The notes beneath the pieces are model-generated. The model saw nothing but the letters and a program-made list of their open reading frames with translations, did no database searches and had not been told where the DNA came from. The position numbers and the translations under genes were made by a program. From Ginglymostoma cirratum (taxonomy: Eukaryota), in the NCBI GenBank assembly GCA_024137785.1, contig JAHRHZ010000019.1, positions 26,096,327-26,160,326 on the forward strand: a stretch of 64,000 nucleotides of DNA. Reading direction: 5' to 3'. This document shows, piece after piece, positions 184 through 53,157 of the stretch. Positions within the stretch are counted from its first letter, which is position 1; each line of letters begins with the position of its first letter.

Positions 184-987
184 TTAATGCAGGGGCTGAG
201 AATTGTCATCATCATCATCATCATCATCACCTTCAGGTGCAGTTGTCGTTGCAGGGTTAGAGCAAAAAATAATTAATCCAGAAGTGGATGGCTGTGGTTC
301 ATTGCCTTCTGAATGTTTCTTGGGGGTTGGCTTAAAAAAGACATTTTGCTACTTTGCCCTTTTTCTCCTTTCATGAAGAAGATGTTCATTGAGTGTCAAA
401 TAAAACCTTATTCCATGAACTGCTACCCTGCTGCATTCTGCTTTGTAATCATTGTCCTCTAAGAGCTGCAACTGCTTCTCAATTTCCCTCAGAATAGAAG
501 ACAAAATAAAAGTGGAAAGCTCTGGTGGTGCTGCATCCTGGACTTCATCTTCTTCATCTTCAGCTTCCACTTCCCCCTCAGCGACAAGTTGTTGTAGATC
601 AGCTGTAGGGAGGTCTTCACAGTGGGACTCAAGAAACTCTTCAACATCCTCACTCTCCATTTCTTCAAATCCAACTTGCTTTGCAAGATCAACACAATGT
701 TCTTTGATTCTTGGGAGCTCCTCTGACGGATCAAAGGTTTTAAAATCTTGACAAAAAATCTGGGAGAAGCTTCCGCCAAACTGCATGCAAACAGTCTTTA
801 CTGACATCACCCCAGGCCTCCACAATAATGTCAATTGCATTCTTGACGTTAAAGCTCTTCCAAACTTGAAGAACACTGTCCTTATCCCCCTCAGTGGCTG
901 CAATCAGCCTCTGAAATTTGCGTCTTAAATAATAAGTTTCAAACGCTGCTATTGCACCCTGGTCCATGGGTTGAAGGAGAGAGCTTG
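184..987 (-). mobile_element. Tigger/pogo-family (TIGD1-like) transposase 3' remnant, pseudogenised
   Basis: Minus-strand translation SLLQPMDQGAIAAFETYYLRR...VWKSFNVKNAIDIIVEAWGDV...VWRKLLPDF, the pogo DDE domain around the third Asp. Frameshift in the T-run near 753-758 into ORF 349..903 (DLAKQVGFEEMESEDVEEFLESH). In-frame TAG at 349-351, then ...EPQPSTSG...DDDDDDDD to TAA at 184-186. Confidence 0.85.
206..229. repeat. (TCA)8 microsatellite encoding the acidic Asp tail of the Tigger ORF
   Basis: tcatcatcatcatcatcatcatca seen directly. Confidence 0.9.
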
Positions 988-25713: not shown

Positions 25714-26988
25714 GTATCCACTTTGACTGCAGACCATTTACGGTCAATGAATTACAGGCTGTTTATAAAATATGTTTTAACCTTAAATAGCTTTGATTAA
25801 TTCTACTGTTTTAGCAGAATACAATTCAAATTTTTTGGCTGATTTTTCAATAGTTCATTTTTTCTTCCACTATCAACACTGTCAATAAGCTTCAGCTTCA
25901 TTTACACAGCATTACCGTTAAAAATAATCTATGTATTATGCCTCGGAATGATTTATCAAATTTGCTTCTTTAACGTGTATATCAAGCTCGTGCTTTAAAA
26001 GCTGATAGGTTGGAGGAGGAAAGAACAATTGAGGGAGACGAGTAGTTGAACAATTTTAAATCCCTAAGAACTCAATTGATTAGTAAAAATGCAATGAGCG
26101 CAGGAGCACGAACAATAGAAGATAGAGAATTAGAAGAAGAAAGGAACAATGATTATTGTAGCAGTGGTAAAAGCAAGAAATATTTTAATTGGAAAGGAAT
26201 AGGCAACAGATGAAATGTGAATTGGCTGCAAAATGATCATTACCTCATGTCTGACTTATTGGTGAGGGAACTTTGAAGTCTTGCACTATATTGCATGCTA
26301 TTTGATTACAGATTATATATACATGGTTGGTGTACTGTAATAAGTGGCTCACTCAGAACCCATCTTTAGGACAATTGACTGGAAGAGATGGCCAGCTGTC
26401 CTTTGTATAATGGAAAAAGCTAATTTATTTTTAATGACTTTTTTGACACAGCTCATTTGGTTTGCAAATGTGAATTACATTAATTAATTTAACTGCGGAT
26501 GTAAAAAGTGAGATAGTTTTCACAAAGGAAATGCATTATTCAGACAACACAGCTACAACTCCTTGCCATAGTCTACTGCGTATGTTGTTCTTGGATATCT
26601 AGTTCAACTTATTCATATGTAAGTTGCCTACATAAAAATCTGTTTGATGGAACATTTTCTGAATTTTCAGTCCAGTTGCTATAACTGCTGTGCAGTTTTG
26701 CTAGTCTGTAGACAAGTGATTTATACTTGCTGGCGGTAAGCAATGAATTGTGCCTTTGTTTCTCTGGTTGCTTAATGTGATCATTAAATCTTTTCTTCTC
26801 TCTGCCCCTTCCAGAAATTAGATAGGAACATAGGATTTAGGAGTGGATATAGCTCATTTAGTGCTTTTAGTATGGCCCGTCATTCAACAAGGGCATGGCT
26901 GATCTGCTTGTGGTCTTGACTCCACTCACGTTTCTTCTTGTCATTCAACTTTACCAATTTGCCTTGGCACTTGTTGACCACTGAGGGA

Positions 26989-27433
26989 TGAAGGAGTAAG
27001 TAAAGTGATTAGCTTACTGAAGGAATAAGTAAAGTGATTTACTGAAGGAGAAAGTAAAGACATTAACTTTTAAAGACATTAACTTACTGAAGGAGGAAGT
27101 AAAGAGATCAACAACACAAAGGACCTCTAGATCGAACTTTACACAATCAAGATGAAACATCCGCTGAAACAACAAATCCTGTCCCAACAACAATAGAAGC
27201 GCTAACCATCACCCGCTTTGCAAGACGCCGGAAACAGATTAAAGAACTGTGTACATGACTTGAGGGGGGGTTGGCGCGAGACAGCAAATGTACATAACCT
27301 TTGAAATAGTCTATAATAGCTGAGAAGTTTGGTGAGGCCCCTTTGAGGTCCCTGCTTCTCTCAAAAGCTTTTGTTAATAAAACTGTGTCTGACTCGCTAC
27401 AGAATTGTACTTGGTAATATTTTACCTACAACA
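26989..27433 (+). repeat. ERV 5' LTR (445 bp)
   Basis: TG...CA termini, tandem actgaagga(g/a)(t/a/g)aagtaaag units in U3, TATAAT 27312-27317, AATAAA 27376-27381. Confidence 0.95.
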
Positions 27434-27436
27434 AAT

Positions 27437-27454
27437 TGGCGTAGTCGGCAGGAT
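27437..27454 (+). promoter_or_regulatory. Primer-binding site, tRNA-Ser
   Basis: TGGCGTAGTCGGCAGGAT is complementary to the vertebrate tRNA-Ser 3' end ATCCTGCCGACTACGCCA. It lies 3 nt after the LTR. Confidence 0.92.
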
Positions 27455-27850
27455 CCTGTTTACAGTCCGGGCAGAGTGGCCACAGCCCGGATACCGGGAC
27501 AGGATACCGAACACAAAGTTAAGTGAGTTGGGTCACAGTATTCAATGATCTGTTAAGTATGGATGTGACACTGCCTGCCGTTTGAGTTGAGCAAAATCGG
27601 ACAAGGTGGTACCCGTCTCTAACACGTAGCCTGAACTGGTTGTTAAGAGGGGAAACCCCACCTCCCCACGCAAAGGTCAGGACCCTAAATTGGGTGTAGA
27701 GACTGGAGAAGAGGTACCTGGGATGTGATGCTCAAACTGAAGGTGAGAATGTAATGTTGTGAAACCGCCTAGAGAAATTGAAATAAGCGGGATACGGGGA
27801 CTTGATCACTCCCACAATAGGTATTGCCTGACTCCGATAGAAACAACCCC

Positions 27851-28037
27851 AAGTGAGACGCGGCCAGTGGAAAAACACAAGTAGTCGTGGCTGGTGGGTT
27901 AAACGCAGTCGAGAAATCGGGGGAGATCGAACGACCCCGAGTGAGATCGAACGACCCTGAGTGAGACGCGGCCAGTGGGAAAACACGTAGGACGTGGCCG
28001 GTGGGTTAAACACAGTCGAGAGATCGGGGGAGATCGT
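27851..28037 (+). repeat. Tandem duplication in ERV leader (two ~85-bp units plus a short gagatcgaacgaccc repeat)
   Basis: gtgagacgcggccagtgg...gggttaaac.cagtcgaga.atcggggg.gatcg occurs at ~27853 and ~27961. Confidence 0.9.
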
Positions 28038-28059
28038 GAGTATAAACCTATCCTTTATC

Positions 28060-28709
28060 ATGGCATGGAAGGAAGATCAATGGGGACCCCCGGGGTCTCT
28101 CATTAATCAATATATGACAAATAGACATTCACTTATTAAACAGATGAAAAAGGGGGGATGGGATCCGTCCCAGGCCCTAGAACAACAACGAGTCTGGCAT
28201 TCAGGTCAAAAGAATGATAAGACTAAGAAAACTGCAGTGCTTTTAGTACATCAATTGGCCGGCCTTATAGGGCAGACATTAGAGTCCACGAAGAGGTGGA
28301 CGGAGGAAATAAAAAGGATACTAGGATCACGAATTAGGGAACTAGAGAAAAGGAACCACTTCTTAGCAGAGGGTCAGTGGGGGCCTTTGCCACCATACCA
28401 TCCCAGGGAAGGGCCCACTGCCACAGAGGACAGTCTGAGTGAGGAAGTTAACCACGCCCCCAGTAACCCAGGGCAGGACCCTGGCAGTCCCAACCGCTAG
28501 ATATCAGCCCTTCACACCAGGAGAAAGAGCCCCCACTTGAATAAAACAAGAAAACTTAGGTGCCGTGACAAAGATAAAACCGAAAGACGGGGCAAGACGG
28601 GGCACTTTGCCAAGGAATGTAGAGCCCCAAAACAGAACAAAGGGTGGTCTGGAGTTGGGAAAAACATGGTAAACCAACAACTGCAACTTCTCAAAGGGAG
28701 ATGGACTGA
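28060..28709 (+). pseudogene. gag: ERV gag remnants: N-terminal ORF (28060-28500) and NC zinc-knuckle remnant
   Basis: MAWKEDQWGPPGS...IRELEKRN...GPLPPYHP (late-domain-like), then GKTGHFAKECRAPK (second half of a CCHC knuckle) and a TGA-C at 28707 in frame with the protease. Confidence 0.8.
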
Positions 28710-28799
28710 CGTCCGGCAGCCCCCACGGCCATGGGTAATAAGGAAGGTAGGATTTACGTGTCTGCACGAGTAGGGGGCAGACAATGTGAGATGCTGGTT
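28710..28799 (+). pseudogene. pro: Retroviral aspartic protease N-terminal stub
   Basis: After TGA: RPAAPTAMGNKEGRIYVSARVGGRQCEMLV, the beta-strand pattern that normally leads into DTGA. It breaks off there. Confidence 0.7.
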
Positions 28800-28906
28800 G
28801 TTGGGACAGGATTTGTTGTTTCAGTGGATGTTTCATCTTGATTGTGTAAAGTTCGATCTAGAGGCCCTTTGTGTTGTTGATCTCTTTACTTCCTCCTTCA
28901 GTAAGT
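28797..28906 (-). repeat. Inverted 110-bp copy of the element's own U3
   Basis: Reverse complement of 27082-27191 with 2 mismatches by manual comparison. Confidence 0.95.
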
Positions 28907-28907
28907 A

Positions 28908-30499
28908 GCTACGCTGTTCGTAGCTACCCCTGGGTGGACCCCCTTTGACCTATATACGACAAATGTGTTAGATGCACCCTGTGTGGGCCAAACCGGTACG
29001 TACCATCGCGGAATACAGGGCTGCTGCGTTGAGCTGATTAACTCCGACGACAAGAGGGGTGGCCGGGTCATTTTGTCCCGCGACAGGGATGACGATGAAT
29101 CCAATGACCCCGGCTGTTTAGGCACCCGGGGACATAACGGCACGACTTGCTCCAACCCGCTCAGTTACCCATTATGCTTCTCGGGACAGGGCTGGGGGTG
29201 CGCATACGCCCTAGTCCCCAAGAATGCCTCTTGTGTGCAGACACAATGCTCTCATCAGCACTGCCAAGTTAACAAAGGCATGTTTACGTGCACTTGCAAT
29301 GAGCAACAGTATCTCAATGTTACTGCTGGTAGGCAGTTTATCTGTGGTCAGTGTAATGGCACACAGGTCTCCTCCTATGGCGATGGAACTGGGACATGGA
29401 GGTATCCGTTTGACTCCTACCAGTCCGGCTTCAGTGGGAGCTCTCATCCCTCGTCCTCCGTCGATGGGGGTGGGCCCTACCCATCCGACTGGTATGTTCA
29501 GCAGTATACAAAACAGAACGGATCCACAGTCACATGCTATCGAGCCAAGAAAGGCTTTGTGCTCCTCCTCAATGGGACCTTCACAACAGCCACACCAACC
29601 CTCCCAGTCCTGTCATAGAATCCCTACAGTGTGGAAACAGGCCCTTCGGCCCAACAAGTCCACACCGAACCTCAGAGAATCCCACCCAGACCCAGCCCCC
29701 CAACTACCCACCTAACCCACACCTCCCTGAACACTACAGGCAATTTAACATGGCCAATCCACCTAACCTGCACATCTTTGGACTGTGGGAGGAAACCGGA
29801 GCACCTGGAGGAAACCCACACAGACACGGGGAGAATGTGCAAACTCCACACAGACAGATGCCCGAGGCTGGAATCAAACCCGGGTCCCTGGTGCTGTGAG
29901 GCAGCAGTGCTAACCACTGAGCCACCGTGTCCTCTTTGCAGTGGGGACAATAGGACCACTTACCGTCCCATGCCCCCAGAGACGACACACCCGTAGGAAG
30001 ATAGTGACCCGAGCCATTAGTGAAAAATTCTGTGCAGACTGGAAGGACCCGGTAACACTGGGGTCCTCACTTGGCTACGGGTTCTTTGGGGCCCTGTCTC
30101 TGGGGGGAGCAGCGGGAGTCATTAGTGCCAAAAATAGAACTACTTTGTTAGCGGACTGACCATCCTGGGAAATAGCATAGCAAAGGGGTTGGATGCTATA
30201 AACCGAGAGCTTGCCGAGTTAAGACTCTATGCGCGGCAGACCTGGTATGCCGTCGATTACCAGTTAGCCCAGCAGGGTAGAGTGTGCACGATAGTAGGGG
30301 ACAAGTGTATAATACATGTTACGGATGAATCCTATAACATCACCCAAGCCATTGATGATATAAGAAAGAGCTGGATGACTTCAGGCAAGGGGACGGTTGG
30401 CTCAAATGGCTCCTAGGTGGATCTTGGGGGACATACCTGCTGCATGCTTTGATTATATTGATTATAATTGTTATTGCTTGCTGTGTTGTTAATCTTTAA
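28908..30499 (+). pseudogene. env: ERV env pseudogene (Cys-rich SU lacking N-terminus; TM with ISD and membrane anchor)
   Basis: ORF 28965..29618 rejoins ORF 29941..30159 in frame once the SINE is removed (LPVLFAVGTIG). Basic cleavage region RRHTRRKIVTR. After a frameshift near 30140: GLTILGNSIAKGLDAINRELAELRLYARQTWYAVDYQLAQQGRVCTIVGDKCI. After a second frameshift near 30367: WLKWLLGGSWGTYLLHALIILIIIVIACC. Confidence 0.9.
29612..29928 (-). mobile_element. HE1 SINE inserted in env
   Basis: Near-full-length antisense HE1 flanked by GTCCT at 29607-29611 and 29929-29933. Confidence 0.95.
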
Positions 30500-30652
30500 T
30501 TTGTGCTGTAAAATCTTAACTGCAAGAATTATGCTGGGTGCAAGTGTCCATGCCGACGAGACTGTTGCGCGCCCCTTGATGGGTGGCTTAGGGACATTCG
30601 AACAATGGCTGGAAGTGGCCTAGAGGCCATGAGTATTCACGACTCTGACCAC

Positions 30653-30662
30653 AAGGGGGGAC
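30653..30662 (+). promoter_or_regulatory. Polypurine tract
   Basis: aaggggggac immediately before the TG of the 3' LTR. Confidence 0.85.
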
Positions 30663-31110
30663 TGAAGGAGTAAGTAAAGTGATTAACTTACTGAAGGAAT
30701 AAGTAAAGTGATTTACTGAAGGAGGAAGTAAAGACATTAACTTTTAAAGACATTAACTTACTGAAGGAATAAGTAAAGAGATCAACAACACAAAGGACCT
30801 CTAGATCGAACTTTACACAATCAAGATGAAACATCCGCTGAAACAACAAATCCTGTCCCAACAACAATAGAAGCGTTAACCATCACCCGCTTTGCAAGAC
30901 GCCGGAAACAGATTAAAGAACTGTGTACATGACTTGAGGCGGGGGGGTTGGCACGTGACAGCAAATGTATATAACCTTTGAAATCGTCTGTAATAGCTGA
31001 GAAGTTTGGTGAGGCCCCTTTGAGGTCCCTGCTTCTCCCAGAAGCTTCTGTTAATAAAACTGTGTCTGACTCACTACAGAATTGTACTTGGTAATATTTT
31101 ACCTACAATA
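30663..31110 (+). repeat. ERV 3' LTR (448 bp)
   Basis: About 15 substitutions and one 3-bp indel vs the 5' LTR by manual count. Terminal CA has mutated to TA. Confidence 0.95.
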
Positions 31111-32604
31111 GGGACTTCCTCTCAATTCTGAAAATGCTCCACCCGCATTTCTGCAGTTACATCTGAAAACTTTGAGGTCCCCTATAACTCTCTTGTCCTC
31201 TGTCACCTTAGTAGAGCTCCATGAATTTGCTCCCCTGATTTAATCATAAAAATGCACCTCATCTATTAGTTGTTGCAAACCAGTAAGAACCTAATTTTCC
31301 ATTTCCTAGATGATGAGTTATTGACAGAGTACACTTTTCATTCAAAGCTCACTACAACCAAGCAAATCAGGAGTTAGGGCAACCTGGAAATTGTAGTGTT
31401 TTCTTGCTGCTTCCCCTAGATGACCCTTACTATCACACTGGCCACCTCTTGTTGGTTTGCTGCTAGAAAACTAAAACCATAGTTTCTGCTCTACTTCCTT
31501 AATAGTTTTCATCAATAATTTCTGGTACTAATTTGATATTTTGACCTGAGATTTGATTATAGGGTGACTATTGCATATTTTATTGCTTTCAAGGTACTGT
31601 GTTGTGGGGGTTCCACAAAGGTCAGAAATACACAAAGGTCAAATGCAATCATAAAATGGGTATGCCTTCAGCAGCTCATGTAAGGTACAGCCGTTTATTG
31701 GTAGTGCTATGCTTCTGAAAGTATTGGCTGCATATTATTATTATTATATAACTAATGCTAAGGTCAGAGTTGCTGATGTCTATTTTCAGTATTATAAACA
31801 CAAGCCTGGGTGTTGTAAAAGGGTGTACCAAGTGCTAAATTCATCTTGATATGTCAATAAGTCCCTCATTGTTATTACGACTATTAATGGGTAACAATTG
31901 TTTCAGGAATACAGGTTTTTGCTGACAATTATTCCTGTTGTTCCATCAATAAGATGATTCTTTTTTTAAAAAATCTAAAACCCATGCTCTGAATAAAATA
32001 CATCTCAGTTAGTGGAGAGAATACAAATCAGACTGACCTGCAGTGCATTCCTAACATTTTTTCTATTTTTAATTCAAACTTCCAATACACACAGTTTTCT
32101 TTTCACTAAAGCTTATTAATTCAAAGTGTGGAAGACAGTAGAGTGCTTCAATCAGCTCCGGCTTCCACACTCCAGAATGCAATCAACATGTTTCTGCATC
32201 ATAGCTAATAGTTTATTAAGAAGCTATTTTCCATTGTGGCAGTTGTAAAATGTAATCCTTAATAAGGTGAGCGGATTACAGCATTTGCCAGTCAATCTGA
32301 CTGAGTTCTGTAAAGTGAACCTGTTACCATAGTACTGAATGCAGTCAGTTTGTACAACTCAGTTGGTTCAACAACACCAGTCTTGTGTGTGGTGCAGTTC
32401 TGATGAAAACAGTTAAGTGGCATTAATGCGTGGGCTAGCAATGTCAAAAGCTGAGAGATTAGCATTTCTATGACCAGAATAGAATGGTGAGTGCTAATCA
32501 TGGCAACTTCAACATTGGTGCTGTTCTGTATCCTGGAGAAAAGAGTGAAAACCCATTCTGTGAAGGCTGAGCTGCAAAATTACTTAGATACATAGGTGAA
32601 TGAT

Positions 32605-34550: not shown

Positions 34551-34758
34551 GGGAAATGGTGGTACTTTTCTCACTGGACCTTAGGAGTTTAGGGTGTGAT
34601 CTTCTTGAGGTTTCTCAAATCATGAGGAGCCTAAATAAGGTGAATGACAACAATCTTTTCCCTAAGGTGGGGGAATTCAAAACTAGGGGGCATATTTTTA
34701 AGATGAGAGGAGAAAGATTTAGAAAGGATGTGAGGGGCAACATTTTTACACAAAGAGT

Positions 34759-35735
34759 AGTTCCATAAGGGTCAGTGTTGGGACCACAACTTTTCACTTT
34801 ATACATTGAAGATCTAGATAAAGGAACTGAGGGTATTCTGGCTAAGTTTGCAGATGATGCAAAGGTAGGTGGAGGGACAGGTAGTATTGAGGAGGTGGGA
34901 AAGCTGCAGAAGGACTTAGACAGGTTAGGAGAGTGGGCAAGGAAGTGGCAGATGGAATACAACGTGAGAAAGTGTGACGTCATGCACTTTGGTAAGAAGA
35001 ATAAAGGCAAAAACTATTTTCTAAATGGGGAGAAAATTCAGAAATCTGAAGTGCAGAAGGACTTGGGAGTCCTAGTCCAGGATTCTCTTAAAGTTTACTT
35101 GCAGATTGAGTCAGTAGTTAGGAAGGTAAATGCAGTGCTGGCATTTATTTCAAGAGGACTAGAATGTAAAAACAGGTATGTAATTCTGAGGCTCTATAAG
35201 GCTCTGGTCAGACCATATTTAGAACATTGTGAGCAATTTTGGGCCCCATTCTTCAGGGTGGATGTACTGGCCCTGGAGTGGGTCCATGAGATTCATGAGA
35301 AGGATTCTAGGAATGAAAGGCTTAACATATGAGGAAGGTTTGAGGACTCTATATCTATAACTGATGGAGTTTAGAAGGATGCAGAATACTAAAAGGCCTG
35401 GATACAGTTGGGAAGATGTTTCCATCAGCAGGAAAGACTAGGGCCTGAGGGCACAGCCTTAGAGTAAAAGGAAGACCCTTTAGAATAGAGGTGAGGAGAA
35501 CCTTCTTCAGCCAGAGAGTGGTGAATGTATGGAATTCATTGCTACAGAAGGCTGTGGAGGTCAAGTCATTGAGTACATTTAAGACAGAGATTGATAGGTT
35601 CTTGATTATTGAGAGGATCAAAGGTTATGGGGGAAGGCGGGAGAATTGGGTTGAGAAACTTATCAGCCATGATTGAATGGCAGAGCAGACTCAATGGGCT
35701 AAAAGGCCTAATTTCTGCTCCTATGTCTTGTGACA
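34759..35735 (+). mobile_element. CR1 LINE, 5'-truncated RT to 3' tail (nested)
   Basis: ORF 34775..35332 LGPQLFTLYIEDLD...AKFADDAK...WQMEYNVRKC...KDLGVLV...LYKALVRPYLE, then CR1 C-terminus and tail. Confidence 0.93.
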
Positions 35736-41182: not shown

Positions 41183-41498
41183 GGGGCGGCACAGTGGCTC
41201 AGTGGTTAGCACTGCTGCCTCACAGTGCCAGGGACCTGGGTTCAATTCGCAGCCTCAGGTGACTGTCTGTGTGGAGTTTGCACATTCTCCACATGTCTGC
41301 ATGGGATTCCTCTGGGTGCTCCAGTTTCCTCCCACAGTCCAAAGATGTGCAGGCTAGGTGGATTGGCCACGCTAAATTGCCCATAGTGTTCAGGGGTGTG
41401 TGGGTTATAGGGGGGACGGGTCTGGGTGGGATGCTCCAAGGGTCAGTGTGGACTTGTTCGGCTGAAGGGCCTGTTTCCACACTGTAGGGATTCTAATG
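41183..41498 (+). mobile_element. HE1 SINE, full length
   Basis: ggggcggcacagtggctcagtggttagc (A box), gggttcaattc (B box), HER1-like tail. Possible TSD ATATT (41178-41182 / 41499-41503). Confidence 0.95.
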
Positions 41499-43702: not shown

Positions 43703-45250
43703 TTTTTTCATTTATTCGTGGGGTATAGGCATTGTTGGCTGGCCAGCATTTGTTGCCTAGCTCTCGTTGCCCTTCAGAAGGTAGTGGTGAGCTGCCTTCT
43801 TGAACCACTGCAGTCCACATGCTGTAGATTGATCTACAATGTCCTTAGGTAGGGAAATCCAGGATTTTAACCCACTGACACTGAAAGAAAGGCAATATAT
43901 TTCCATGTCAGGATGGTGAGTGGCTTGGAGGGGAGCTTGCAGGTTGTGGTTCCTGTTCCCAGGAATCTCCTGCCCTTGTCCTTCTAAATGGAAGTTGTCA
44001 TGGGTTTGGAAGATGTTGCCGAAGCAGCCTTGAAGAATTTCTTCAGTGCATCTTGCAGATAGCATATAGCGCTGCTGCTGAACATTTTTGATGGAGGAAG
44101 TGAATGTGTGTGGATGTAGTGCCAATCAAGCAGGCTGCTTTGTCCTAGAAGGTGTCAAGCTTCTTGAGTGTTGTTGGAGCTACACTCATCCAGGCAAGTG
44201 GGGAGCATTCCATCACACTCCTGACATGTGCCTTATAGATGGTGGACAGGCTTTGGGAAGTCAGCAGTTGAGTTATTCACTGCAGTATTCCTAGCCTATG
44301 ACCTGCTCTTATACACATTGTATTTATGTGGTCAGTCAATAGTAACCCCAAGGATGTTAATAGTAGAGGATTCAGTGATGCTAACACCATTAAATATCAA
44401 GGACCAGTGGTTAGAATGTCTCTTATTGGAAATGGTCATTGCTTAACATTTTTGTCACGCAAATATCACATCCACTTGTTAGCCCAAGCCTAGATATTGT
44501 CCAGATGTTGTTGCATTTGTACAAAGACTGCTTCAGTTTCTGAGGAATTGTGAAAGGTGCCATCGTTGGCAAACCTCCCCACTTCTGACATTATTATGGA
44601 GGGAAGGTCATTGATGAAGTAGCTGAAAATGTTTGGGATTAGGACAATATCCTGAGAAACTGTTACATAGATGTCCTGGAGTTGAGATGACCGACCTCCA
44701 ACAAACACTACCATTTTCCTATCTGTCAAGTACGAATCCAACCAGTGGACAGTTTGCCACTTGATACCCATTGATTCTAGTTTTGCTGGGGCTCCTTGGT
44801 GCCACATTTGGTTGAATGTGACCTTGATATAAGGGCTGTTACTCTCACCTTGCCTCTGGAATTCAGTTCTTTTGTCCATGTTTGAACCAAGGCTGTAATG
44901 AGGTCAGGAGCTGAGTGGCCCTGGCGGAACCCAACAGGGCATCACTGAGCAGGTTATTGCTGAGCAGGCGCTGCTTGATAGCACTTCGTTGACACTTTCC
45001 ATCATTTTATCGATGATCAAAAGTATACCTAGACCTGTCTATCACTTGCTGTTTATGCTGTTTGTCATGTAACTAGGCCTATTTGTTAGCTTCACCAGAT
45101 TGACACGACATTTTAAGATCTGCCTGGTGCTGCTCCAGACATGCCCCCCTGCACTCTTCATTGAACCAGGGTTGATCCCCTGGCTAATGACTGAGTCAGG
45201 TACATGCTAATTCATGAGGTGCAGATTGTATTGGAGTACAATTCTGATAT
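43703..45250 (-). mobile_element. CR1-group LINE RT and 3' end, degenerate
   Basis: ORF 44490..44879 WHQGAPAKLESMGI...WLDSYLTDRKMVVFVGGRSS...FINDLPSIIMSEVGRFAND (RT domains 3-5). ORF 43757..44125 ends GLQWFKKAAHHYLLKG. Confidence 0.9.
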
Positions 45251-52841: not shown

Positions 52842-53157
52842 TGGGGGTGGCATAGTGTCTCAGTGGTTTTTACTGCTGCGTCACAATGCCAGGGGCCTCA
52901 GTTCAATTCCAGCCTTGGGCAACTGTCTGTGTAGTGTGTGCACATTCTTCCTGTGTCCGCGTGGGTTTCCTCTAAATGCTCTGGTTTCCTCCCACAGTCC
53001 AAAGATGTGCAGGTTATGTGGATTGGCCATGCTAAACTGCCCATAGTATCTAGGGATATGCAGGCTAGGTGGATTAGCCATGGGAAATGCAAGGTTACAG
53101 GATAGAGTAGCGGGATGGGTCTGGGTAGGATGCTCTTCAGAGGATCAGTGTGGATGT
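52842..53157 (+). mobile_element. HE1 SINE
   Basis: gggggtggcatagtgtctcagtgg head and HE1 body. Tail missing. Confidence 0.9.

Follow-up and report, generated by a model that had tools for sequence, protein, structure and literature searches.

Background

Single-cycle retroviral vectors are said, in work of Pulsinelli and Temin from 1991 and of Parthasarathi et al. from 1995, to yield deletions which are bridged by a short sequence derived from the element, with little or no homology at the junctions. These deletion-with-insertion products would resemble the locus described below in that the deletion is bridged by the element's own sequence. A further description of vector deletions and of a U3 translocation does so, in its accessible part, without an inverted patch (PMC2645402). 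The standard order of reverse transcription is taken from PMC12789967. HIV-1 reverse transcriptase can switch templates on three or fewer bases of homology (PMC12115494), and for plant retrotransposons template switching has been proposed as a source of complex insertions (PMC1950507). Among sequenced HIV-1 proviruses, deletions of more than 2 kb accounted for 51.3%, and an inversion plus a deletion for 1.3% (PMC9278108); "inversion" is a standard provirus category (PMC11880387).

Two further groups of systems are related by the shape of the scar or by the RNA that might result. Snap-back SD-MMEJ, a mode of chromosomal end joining, is recognized by a repeat motif of at least 4 bp, located within 30 bp, and by a primer plus microhomology of at least 1 bp (PMC5728401). 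Maize Mu killer is a derivative of a DNA transposon for which a hairpin transcript, small RNAs and heritable silencing were demonstrated (10.1101/2020.01.09.900282). Antisense LTRs of the SPARCS-like kind are regarded as a potential source of dsRNA (10.64898/2026.04.29.721355).

The locus analyzed here lies in a window of 64,000 nucleotides; "the window" denotes this whole 64-kb stretch of DNA. The class to which the locus belongs is already known: it is a defective provirus with a deletion plus an inversion, having both internal reverse complementarity and a large internal deletion. With the HIV-1 proviruses of this class (PMC9278108, PMC11880387) it shares the LTRs, a target duplication, the loss of several kb and an inverted internal segment. 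In contrast to these, the inverted piece duplicates U3 and is complementary to a retained part of the transcript, and the copy is germline and old. As in snap-back SD-MMEJ (PMC5728401), a short inverted motif, lying within 30 nt, supplies primer, filler and microhomology; here, however, a second template of 110 nt was used in addition, which is more than 1.6 kb away. Like Mu killer (10.1101/2020.01.09.900282), the locus is a rearranged copy whose transcript would fold over part of the element including its terminal repeat, whereas the duplex of the provirus is short, is separated by a 1.85-kb loop and is known from sequence and a predicted fold. The SPARCS-like antisense LTRs (10.64898/2026.04.29.721355) are similar as potential dsRNA sources. 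They require that whole LTRs within host transcripts be transcribed in both directions, whereas both arms of our locus would be part of one proviral RNA. A literature search, in which older and subscription papers were thinly covered, returned no description of an endogenous retrovirus with an internal inverted U3 patch, nor of exactly this self-templated double fold-back made by a retroviral enzyme; the search on long templated insertions returned nothing.

Results

Anatomy of the provirus

The element is an integrated LTR provirus, old and defective. It comprises 4,122 bp, of which 3,229 bp are internal (including a 317-bp SINE-like repeat), and it is the only copy within the 64-kb window. 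Two direct LTRs are flanked by identical copies of the four-base target-site duplication GGGA (26985..26988 and 31111..31114, plus strand). The 5' LTR (26989..27433, plus strand, 445 bp) begins with TG and ends with CA, and contains a TATA-like motif at 27312 and an AATAAA at 27376. The 3' LTR (30663..31110, plus strand, 448 bp) differs from it by 15 substitutions and one 3-nt indel over 445 bp, i.e. 3.4%; its terminal CA has been mutated to TA. A primer-binding site (27437..27454, plus strand) begins with TGG three bases past the 5' LTR, and we take it to match serine tRNA. As ARAGORN found no tRNA within the window, there is nothing local to compare it with. A polypurine tract (30653..30661, plus strand) precedes the 3' LTR. 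Rfam gave no match in the window at the gathering threshold, and a crude splice-site scan of both strands for a host gene revealed no convincing exon chain.

Four tandem units open U3 in both LTRs (26989-27110 and 30663-30785); in the 5' LTR they begin at positions 1, 30, 55 and 100. In units 3 and 4 the differences between the LTRs make each unit look like its neighbour, which suggests an exchange between tandem U3 units. The leader contains an 89-nt direct repeat of 88% identity (27842-27929 and 27950-28036), with a 20-nt tandem pair between its copies; part of this repeat is presumably similar to the 5' end of serine tRNA. Donor-like splice sites are found in the leader at 27523, 27740 and 28036.

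Downstream of the leader, gag is followed by env, both related to retroviral proteins and both with Pfam scores below the curated cut-offs. The gag remnant (28060..28706, plus strand) consists of a matrix-like N-terminal part and a damaged zinc knuckle (zf-CCHC, E 0.018, below the cut-off of the profile); its frame is interrupted by stops at 28498-28500 and 28707-28709. It is 47% identical to residues 1-157 of P0004, a zinc-knuckle protein of 444 aa. Because the match is confined to these first 157 of 444 residues and the zinc knuckle follows only about 30 codons further on, a capsid-sized region is absent near 28520. An X5 contig of organism A covers 28404-28563 and thus crosses this break; therefore, the short-gag, capsid-less lineage is not private to the provirus locus. 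Upstream of 28520, other contigs of X5 and X7 have a different sequence; both gag forms are therefore present in relatives. In the zinc-knuckle region at 28586-28590 relatives are longer by 5-7 letters, and at 28643-28654 they carry 46-56 other letters; judged from these alignments, both sites are apparent further small losses in this provirus copy.

The frame after the gag stop (28710..28798, plus strand) encodes about 30 aa, reads ...M-L-V and then enters the insert described below. It is a putative protease stub, named so by its position and by a presumed motif resemblance. Compared with Pfam, these 30 residues gave no match, and none of the 25 candidates of a protein search was relevant as a retropepsin. 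Matches to two unrelated bacterial repeat proteins and to three lectin repeats were dismissed as chance.

The env remnant (28912..30620, plus strand) is interrupted by a SINE, and its transmembrane part is spread across three frames. Its identity to three full-length proteins is 59, 51 and 41%; two of these relatives are named as originating from Pristiophorus japonicus and Rhincodon typus, and the relatives have weak scores to TLV_coat and GP2-like HR1-HR2, below the cut-offs. These two names point to a shark as the likely host. Compared with all three, 46-48 residues are missing at the N-terminus. Residues 2-3 of the env frame are unlike any of them; identity restarts at residue 4. A 19-residue acidic/basic stretch (29040-29110) is missing from the three distant relatives and is native to the lineage, because an X1 contig covers this region. 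The SINE-like repeat (29612..29928, 317 bp) is flanked by a 5-bp duplication, GTCCT, and has five further copies in the window, with identities of 69-86%. Copies in opposite orientation (41190-41495, 86%; 52855-53072, 82%) form inverted pairs which are longer but less perfect than the one described below. Elsewhere in the window, open frames at 349-903 (minus strand), 34615-35332 and 44490-44903 (minus strand) resemble, on visual inspection, decayed fragments of transposase and of LINE reverse transcriptase.

The antisense U3 insert and its junctions

The gag and env remnants are separated by an antisense copy of U3 of 110 bp (28797..28906, minus strand), which bridges a deletion that begins directly behind gag and reaches about codon 50 of env. 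Compared base by base, the insert is identical at 108 of 110 positions to the reverse complement of 27082..27191 (plus strand, LTR positions 94-203), as the initial annotation had stated; within the window, blastn gave an E-value of 1e-49. The match ends abruptly on both sides, with 2-nt overlaps at 28797-28798 and 28905-28906. The window contains 17 inverted pairs of at least 80 bp, among which the pairs of insert and U3 have the two highest identities; the next one reaches 86%. Two changes are private to the insert, namely at 28825 (of CpG type) and at 28865, a position with the LTR base in every listed contig of the four runs compared below. At a 2-nt site where the two LTRs differ, the insert has the form of the 5' LTR. 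Here the 3' LTR has the sequence of a neighbouring U3 unit, likely through a later change.

On the left side, the stub and the insert overlap by 2 nt (28797-28798), a length which is derived from the end point of the relatives and from which the true parent could differ. On the right side, the U3 match stops at 28906 and env restarts at 28912. The filler of 5 nt in between (28907-28911) occurs neither in U3 nor in the env of the relatives. It is part of an inverted env copy of 9 bp: the stretch 28905-28913 matches the reverse complement of env 28919-28927 at every base, giving a junction hairpin (28905..28927) with a loop of 5 nt. The distal end of this inverted repeat is 15 nt away, and the overlaps are 2 and 2 nt; hence, the 2-nt overlap is common to all three joins. 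Perfect inverted repeats of 9 bp within 30 nt occur at 20 of 63,940 window positions, and one of them sits on the junction. The self-complementarity of the core GTAGCTAC allows a second reading of the filler, as a direct duplication of 8 nt, a pattern found at 177 of the 63,940 positions. With its 9-bp motif and overlaps of 2 and 2 nt, the right junction conforms to what defines SD-MMEJ; this describes the shape of the scar and not the identity of the enzyme.

These junctions agree in part with what had been read from the sequence before. The frame behind gag that ends in M-L-V and then runs into the insert is evident from the reading frames. The join to an N-terminally truncated env holds with respect to the truncation, which is seen against three of three relatives; the join is not direct, as the filler intervenes. 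A 4-nt microhomology "gttg" proposed for the left junction had to be shortened to 2 nt, as in three of four runs the relatives' contigs part from the window after 28798.

Contigs of relatives

Eight sequencing runs, none of RNA among those listed, share 5-9% of the words of 28040-29600. Four of these, representing two organisms and four studies, were compared with this region at 82% likeness. The 283 contigs aligned are mostly 90-99% alike and belong to other organisms or strains, not to the source sample. The statements made here refer to the 32 of 289 pieces and 24 of 100 loose ends that were listed; such contigs indicate presence, not absence. Listed contigs of the stub follow the window to 28798 and continue with 130, 132 and 610 other letters (X1, X5 and X7), and a listed stub piece of X6 stops at 28795, which is its own end. 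On the env side, listed matches begin at 28912 (X1, preceded by 249 other letters) and at 28915 (X5, preceded by 184). Because relatives carry other, longer sequence at these points, the family exists in a form that is not rearranged at the two junctions. Where contigs cover the insert, they show loose ends at 28797 and at 28904 or 28906 in all four runs, as is expected of ordinary LTRs. Among the 32 of 289 pieces listed, none extends across a junction by 31 letters on each side. Collections that are not expected to hold shark DNA gave no related locus among 90 metagenome-contig and 14 viral-contig candidates, and metagenome contigs, likewise not expected to hold shark DNA, gave no match to a 24-nt pattern of the left junction.

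Age of the provirus and of the insert

CmiERV (PMC4422223) resembles our provirus in its shark-type host, as judged here from the names of two env relatives, and in LTR divergence (0.033 and 0.024, compared with 0.034). The lineage of CmiERV was assigned by Pol, which is absent from this copy; placement in an epsilon-like or class I lineage likewise goes by the phylogeny of reverse transcriptase. For the elephant-shark provirus with a divergence of 0.033, an age of 75 million years was given, assuming a rate of 2.2e-10 per site and year; with the mammalian rate cited in the same paper, the age would be a tenth of this (PMC4422223). By analogy, our provirus would be millions of years old, an estimate which is uncalibrated.

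If the insert were as old as the LTR pair, 1.85 private changes would be expected, and 2 are seen. The probability of two or more such changes is 0.55 for an insert of full age, 0.24 for half, 0.079 for a quarter and 0.015 for a tenth of this age. An earlier dating of the rearrangement to about the time of integration thus finds loose support, and the timing weakly favors reverse transcription. The private changes may also come from another LTR of the family that served as template.

Predicted folding of the transcript

A transcript running from LTR to LTR would hold both arms, because the U3 arm lies upstream of the TATA-like motif and of AATAAA. The candidate pairing partner of the insert in such an RNA is the U3 arm of the 3' LTR (30756..30865, plus strand), which is complementary to it at 106 of 110 positions across a loop of 1,849 nt. 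In the minimum-energy fold of an assumed transcript of 3,741 nt, 107 of the 110 insert bases pair with this arm. The longest unbroken helix of the predicted fold measures 68 bp, compared with 10 bp for the longest unrelated helix. As a prediction, therefore, the long intramolecular duplex that characterizes hairpin silencers is present, in agreement with the fold-back of about 110 bp previously proposed for this locus. One G-U wobble is present in the paired arms; compensatory changes are absent.

Just upstream of the env remnant, the antisense U3 ends with a pyrimidine tract plus CAG (28880-28901, plus strand), which looks like a splice acceptor. By a crude score, this site ranks sixth among 4,565 plus-strand AGs. 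Splicing into it would remove the antisense arm from the RNA.

Discussion

Origin of the rearrangement

On balance, we consider it probable, if by no means assured, that the locus is an old defective provirus in which two inverted copies of proviral sequence fill a deletion from pol to env, that they were likely made during a single faulty reverse transcription shortly before integration, and that the copy likely has no function. The following course of events would account for the junctions. The minus strand would have copied U3 and env as far as 28912. A 2-nt match would then have allowed it to fold back and to serve as its own template for 7 nt, forming the hairpin. A jump on a second 2-nt match would have brought it to its own U3 stretch, at position 94, of which 110 nt would have been copied. 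A final jump, again on a 2-nt match, would have led back to the RNA behind gag, i.e. to the stub. One pass of the minus strand explains all three joins, because the inverted templates are minus-sense DNA already made at that time and the last template is the RNA still ahead. A reverse-transcription accident, which the initial annotation had considered as a fallback reading, is thus the better supported one: the three 2-nt joins fit one minus-sense strand. The accident was presumably a one-off. The fold-back RNA over 110 bp would be a by-product, provided that the copy is transcribed from LTR to LTR.

Autointegration, which can also invert internal sequence, was rejected as a candidate. LTR termini are expected at the junctions of such inversions; the insert comprises LTR positions 94-203, and neither LTR terminus is found at the junctions.

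The strongest competitor, which we regard as unlikely and nevertheless take seriously, assumes that the provirus integrated with pol and that a later germline break was mended by synthesis-dependent end joining or by a replication template switch. The 3' end on the env side would snap back, invade an LTR 1.6-1.85 kb off, copy 110 nt and anneal to the gag-side end. The resected env-side end has the same strand polarity as in the reverse-transcription model, and the right junction conforms to the three characteristics of SD-MMEJ given in PMC5728401; consequently, junction anatomy cannot separate reverse transcription from chromosomal snap-back end joining. Moreover, a break could have occurred at this locus at any time over millions of years. 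The templates of PMC5728401 are, however, located at most 30 nt from the break, whereas a 110-nt template more than 1.6 kb off needs an extra, longer invasion. With its two private changes, the insert is not young either. The agreement of the insert with the 5' LTR at the 2-nt site would fit the 5' LTR as a chromosomal template, but it is also explained by the later change of the 3' LTR toward the neighbouring U3 unit.

Reverse transcription just before integration has also to be weighed against an earlier origin, in which the rearranged form is older and spread by copying in trans, as a non-autonomous family, so that this locus is one of many. This we judge improbable. The copy has its LTRs, a primer-binding site and a polypurine tract, capsid-less gag exists outside the locus (X5 contig, 28404-28563), and the private changes of the insert could predate integration. 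The stub contigs, however, pass 28798 into other sequence in three of four runs, which indicates that the shared lineage is unrearranged there. In addition, propagation would be expected to suffer from a long duplex within the genomic RNA. This expectation is by analogy only: dsRNA from convergent transcription reduces the titres of retroviral vectors, in a different geometry (PMC13148933).

A possible role of the fold-back RNA

According to a further and quite doubtful explanation, the locus was kept for its fold-back RNA, from which small RNAs or an antisense signal would silence the LTR family, making it a vertebrate counterpart of Mu killer. The features that speak for it are the predicted duplex with its 68-bp unbroken helix, the insert and U3 being the most perfect inverted pair in the window, and the strong acceptor-like site that ends the antisense arm. 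U3 is, moreover, located at the 3' end of every transcript of the family. On the other hand, there is no sign of selection on pairing: 4 of 110 arm positions are mismatched, compared with 13 of 335 in the remainder of the two LTRs (Fisher p = 1.0, a test of low power). The arms have thus drifted at the background rate, and nothing in the present analysis supports a self-silencing or defective-interfering function, as had been proposed for this provirus. Furthermore, the arms are 1,849 nt apart, and precedents of hairpin silencers among the sources consulted come mostly from plants. It would be a long shot to conclude that one reverse-transcription error has created a vertebrate "killer" allele which silences its own family, with a junction recording an enzyme that copied its own nascent DNA twice running.

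Finally, it is hardly credible that the junctions are a chimera of assembly or reads, as the insert differs at two sites from both LTRs, which a chimera would copy exactly, the window contains no N, and the three joins have a coherent templated structure.

Conclusion

If the joins arose in reverse transcription, as we think probable, the locus preserves, as a clean fossil, a template switch in three steps, which can be read base by base, in a little-studied lineage of fish retroviruses. It would illustrate that an ordinary replication error can make a self-complementary proviral RNA in a single step. If the locus were transcribed and processed in the germline, this would be a simple route by which a new retroviral invader may supply the trigger of its own silencing in a vertebrate.
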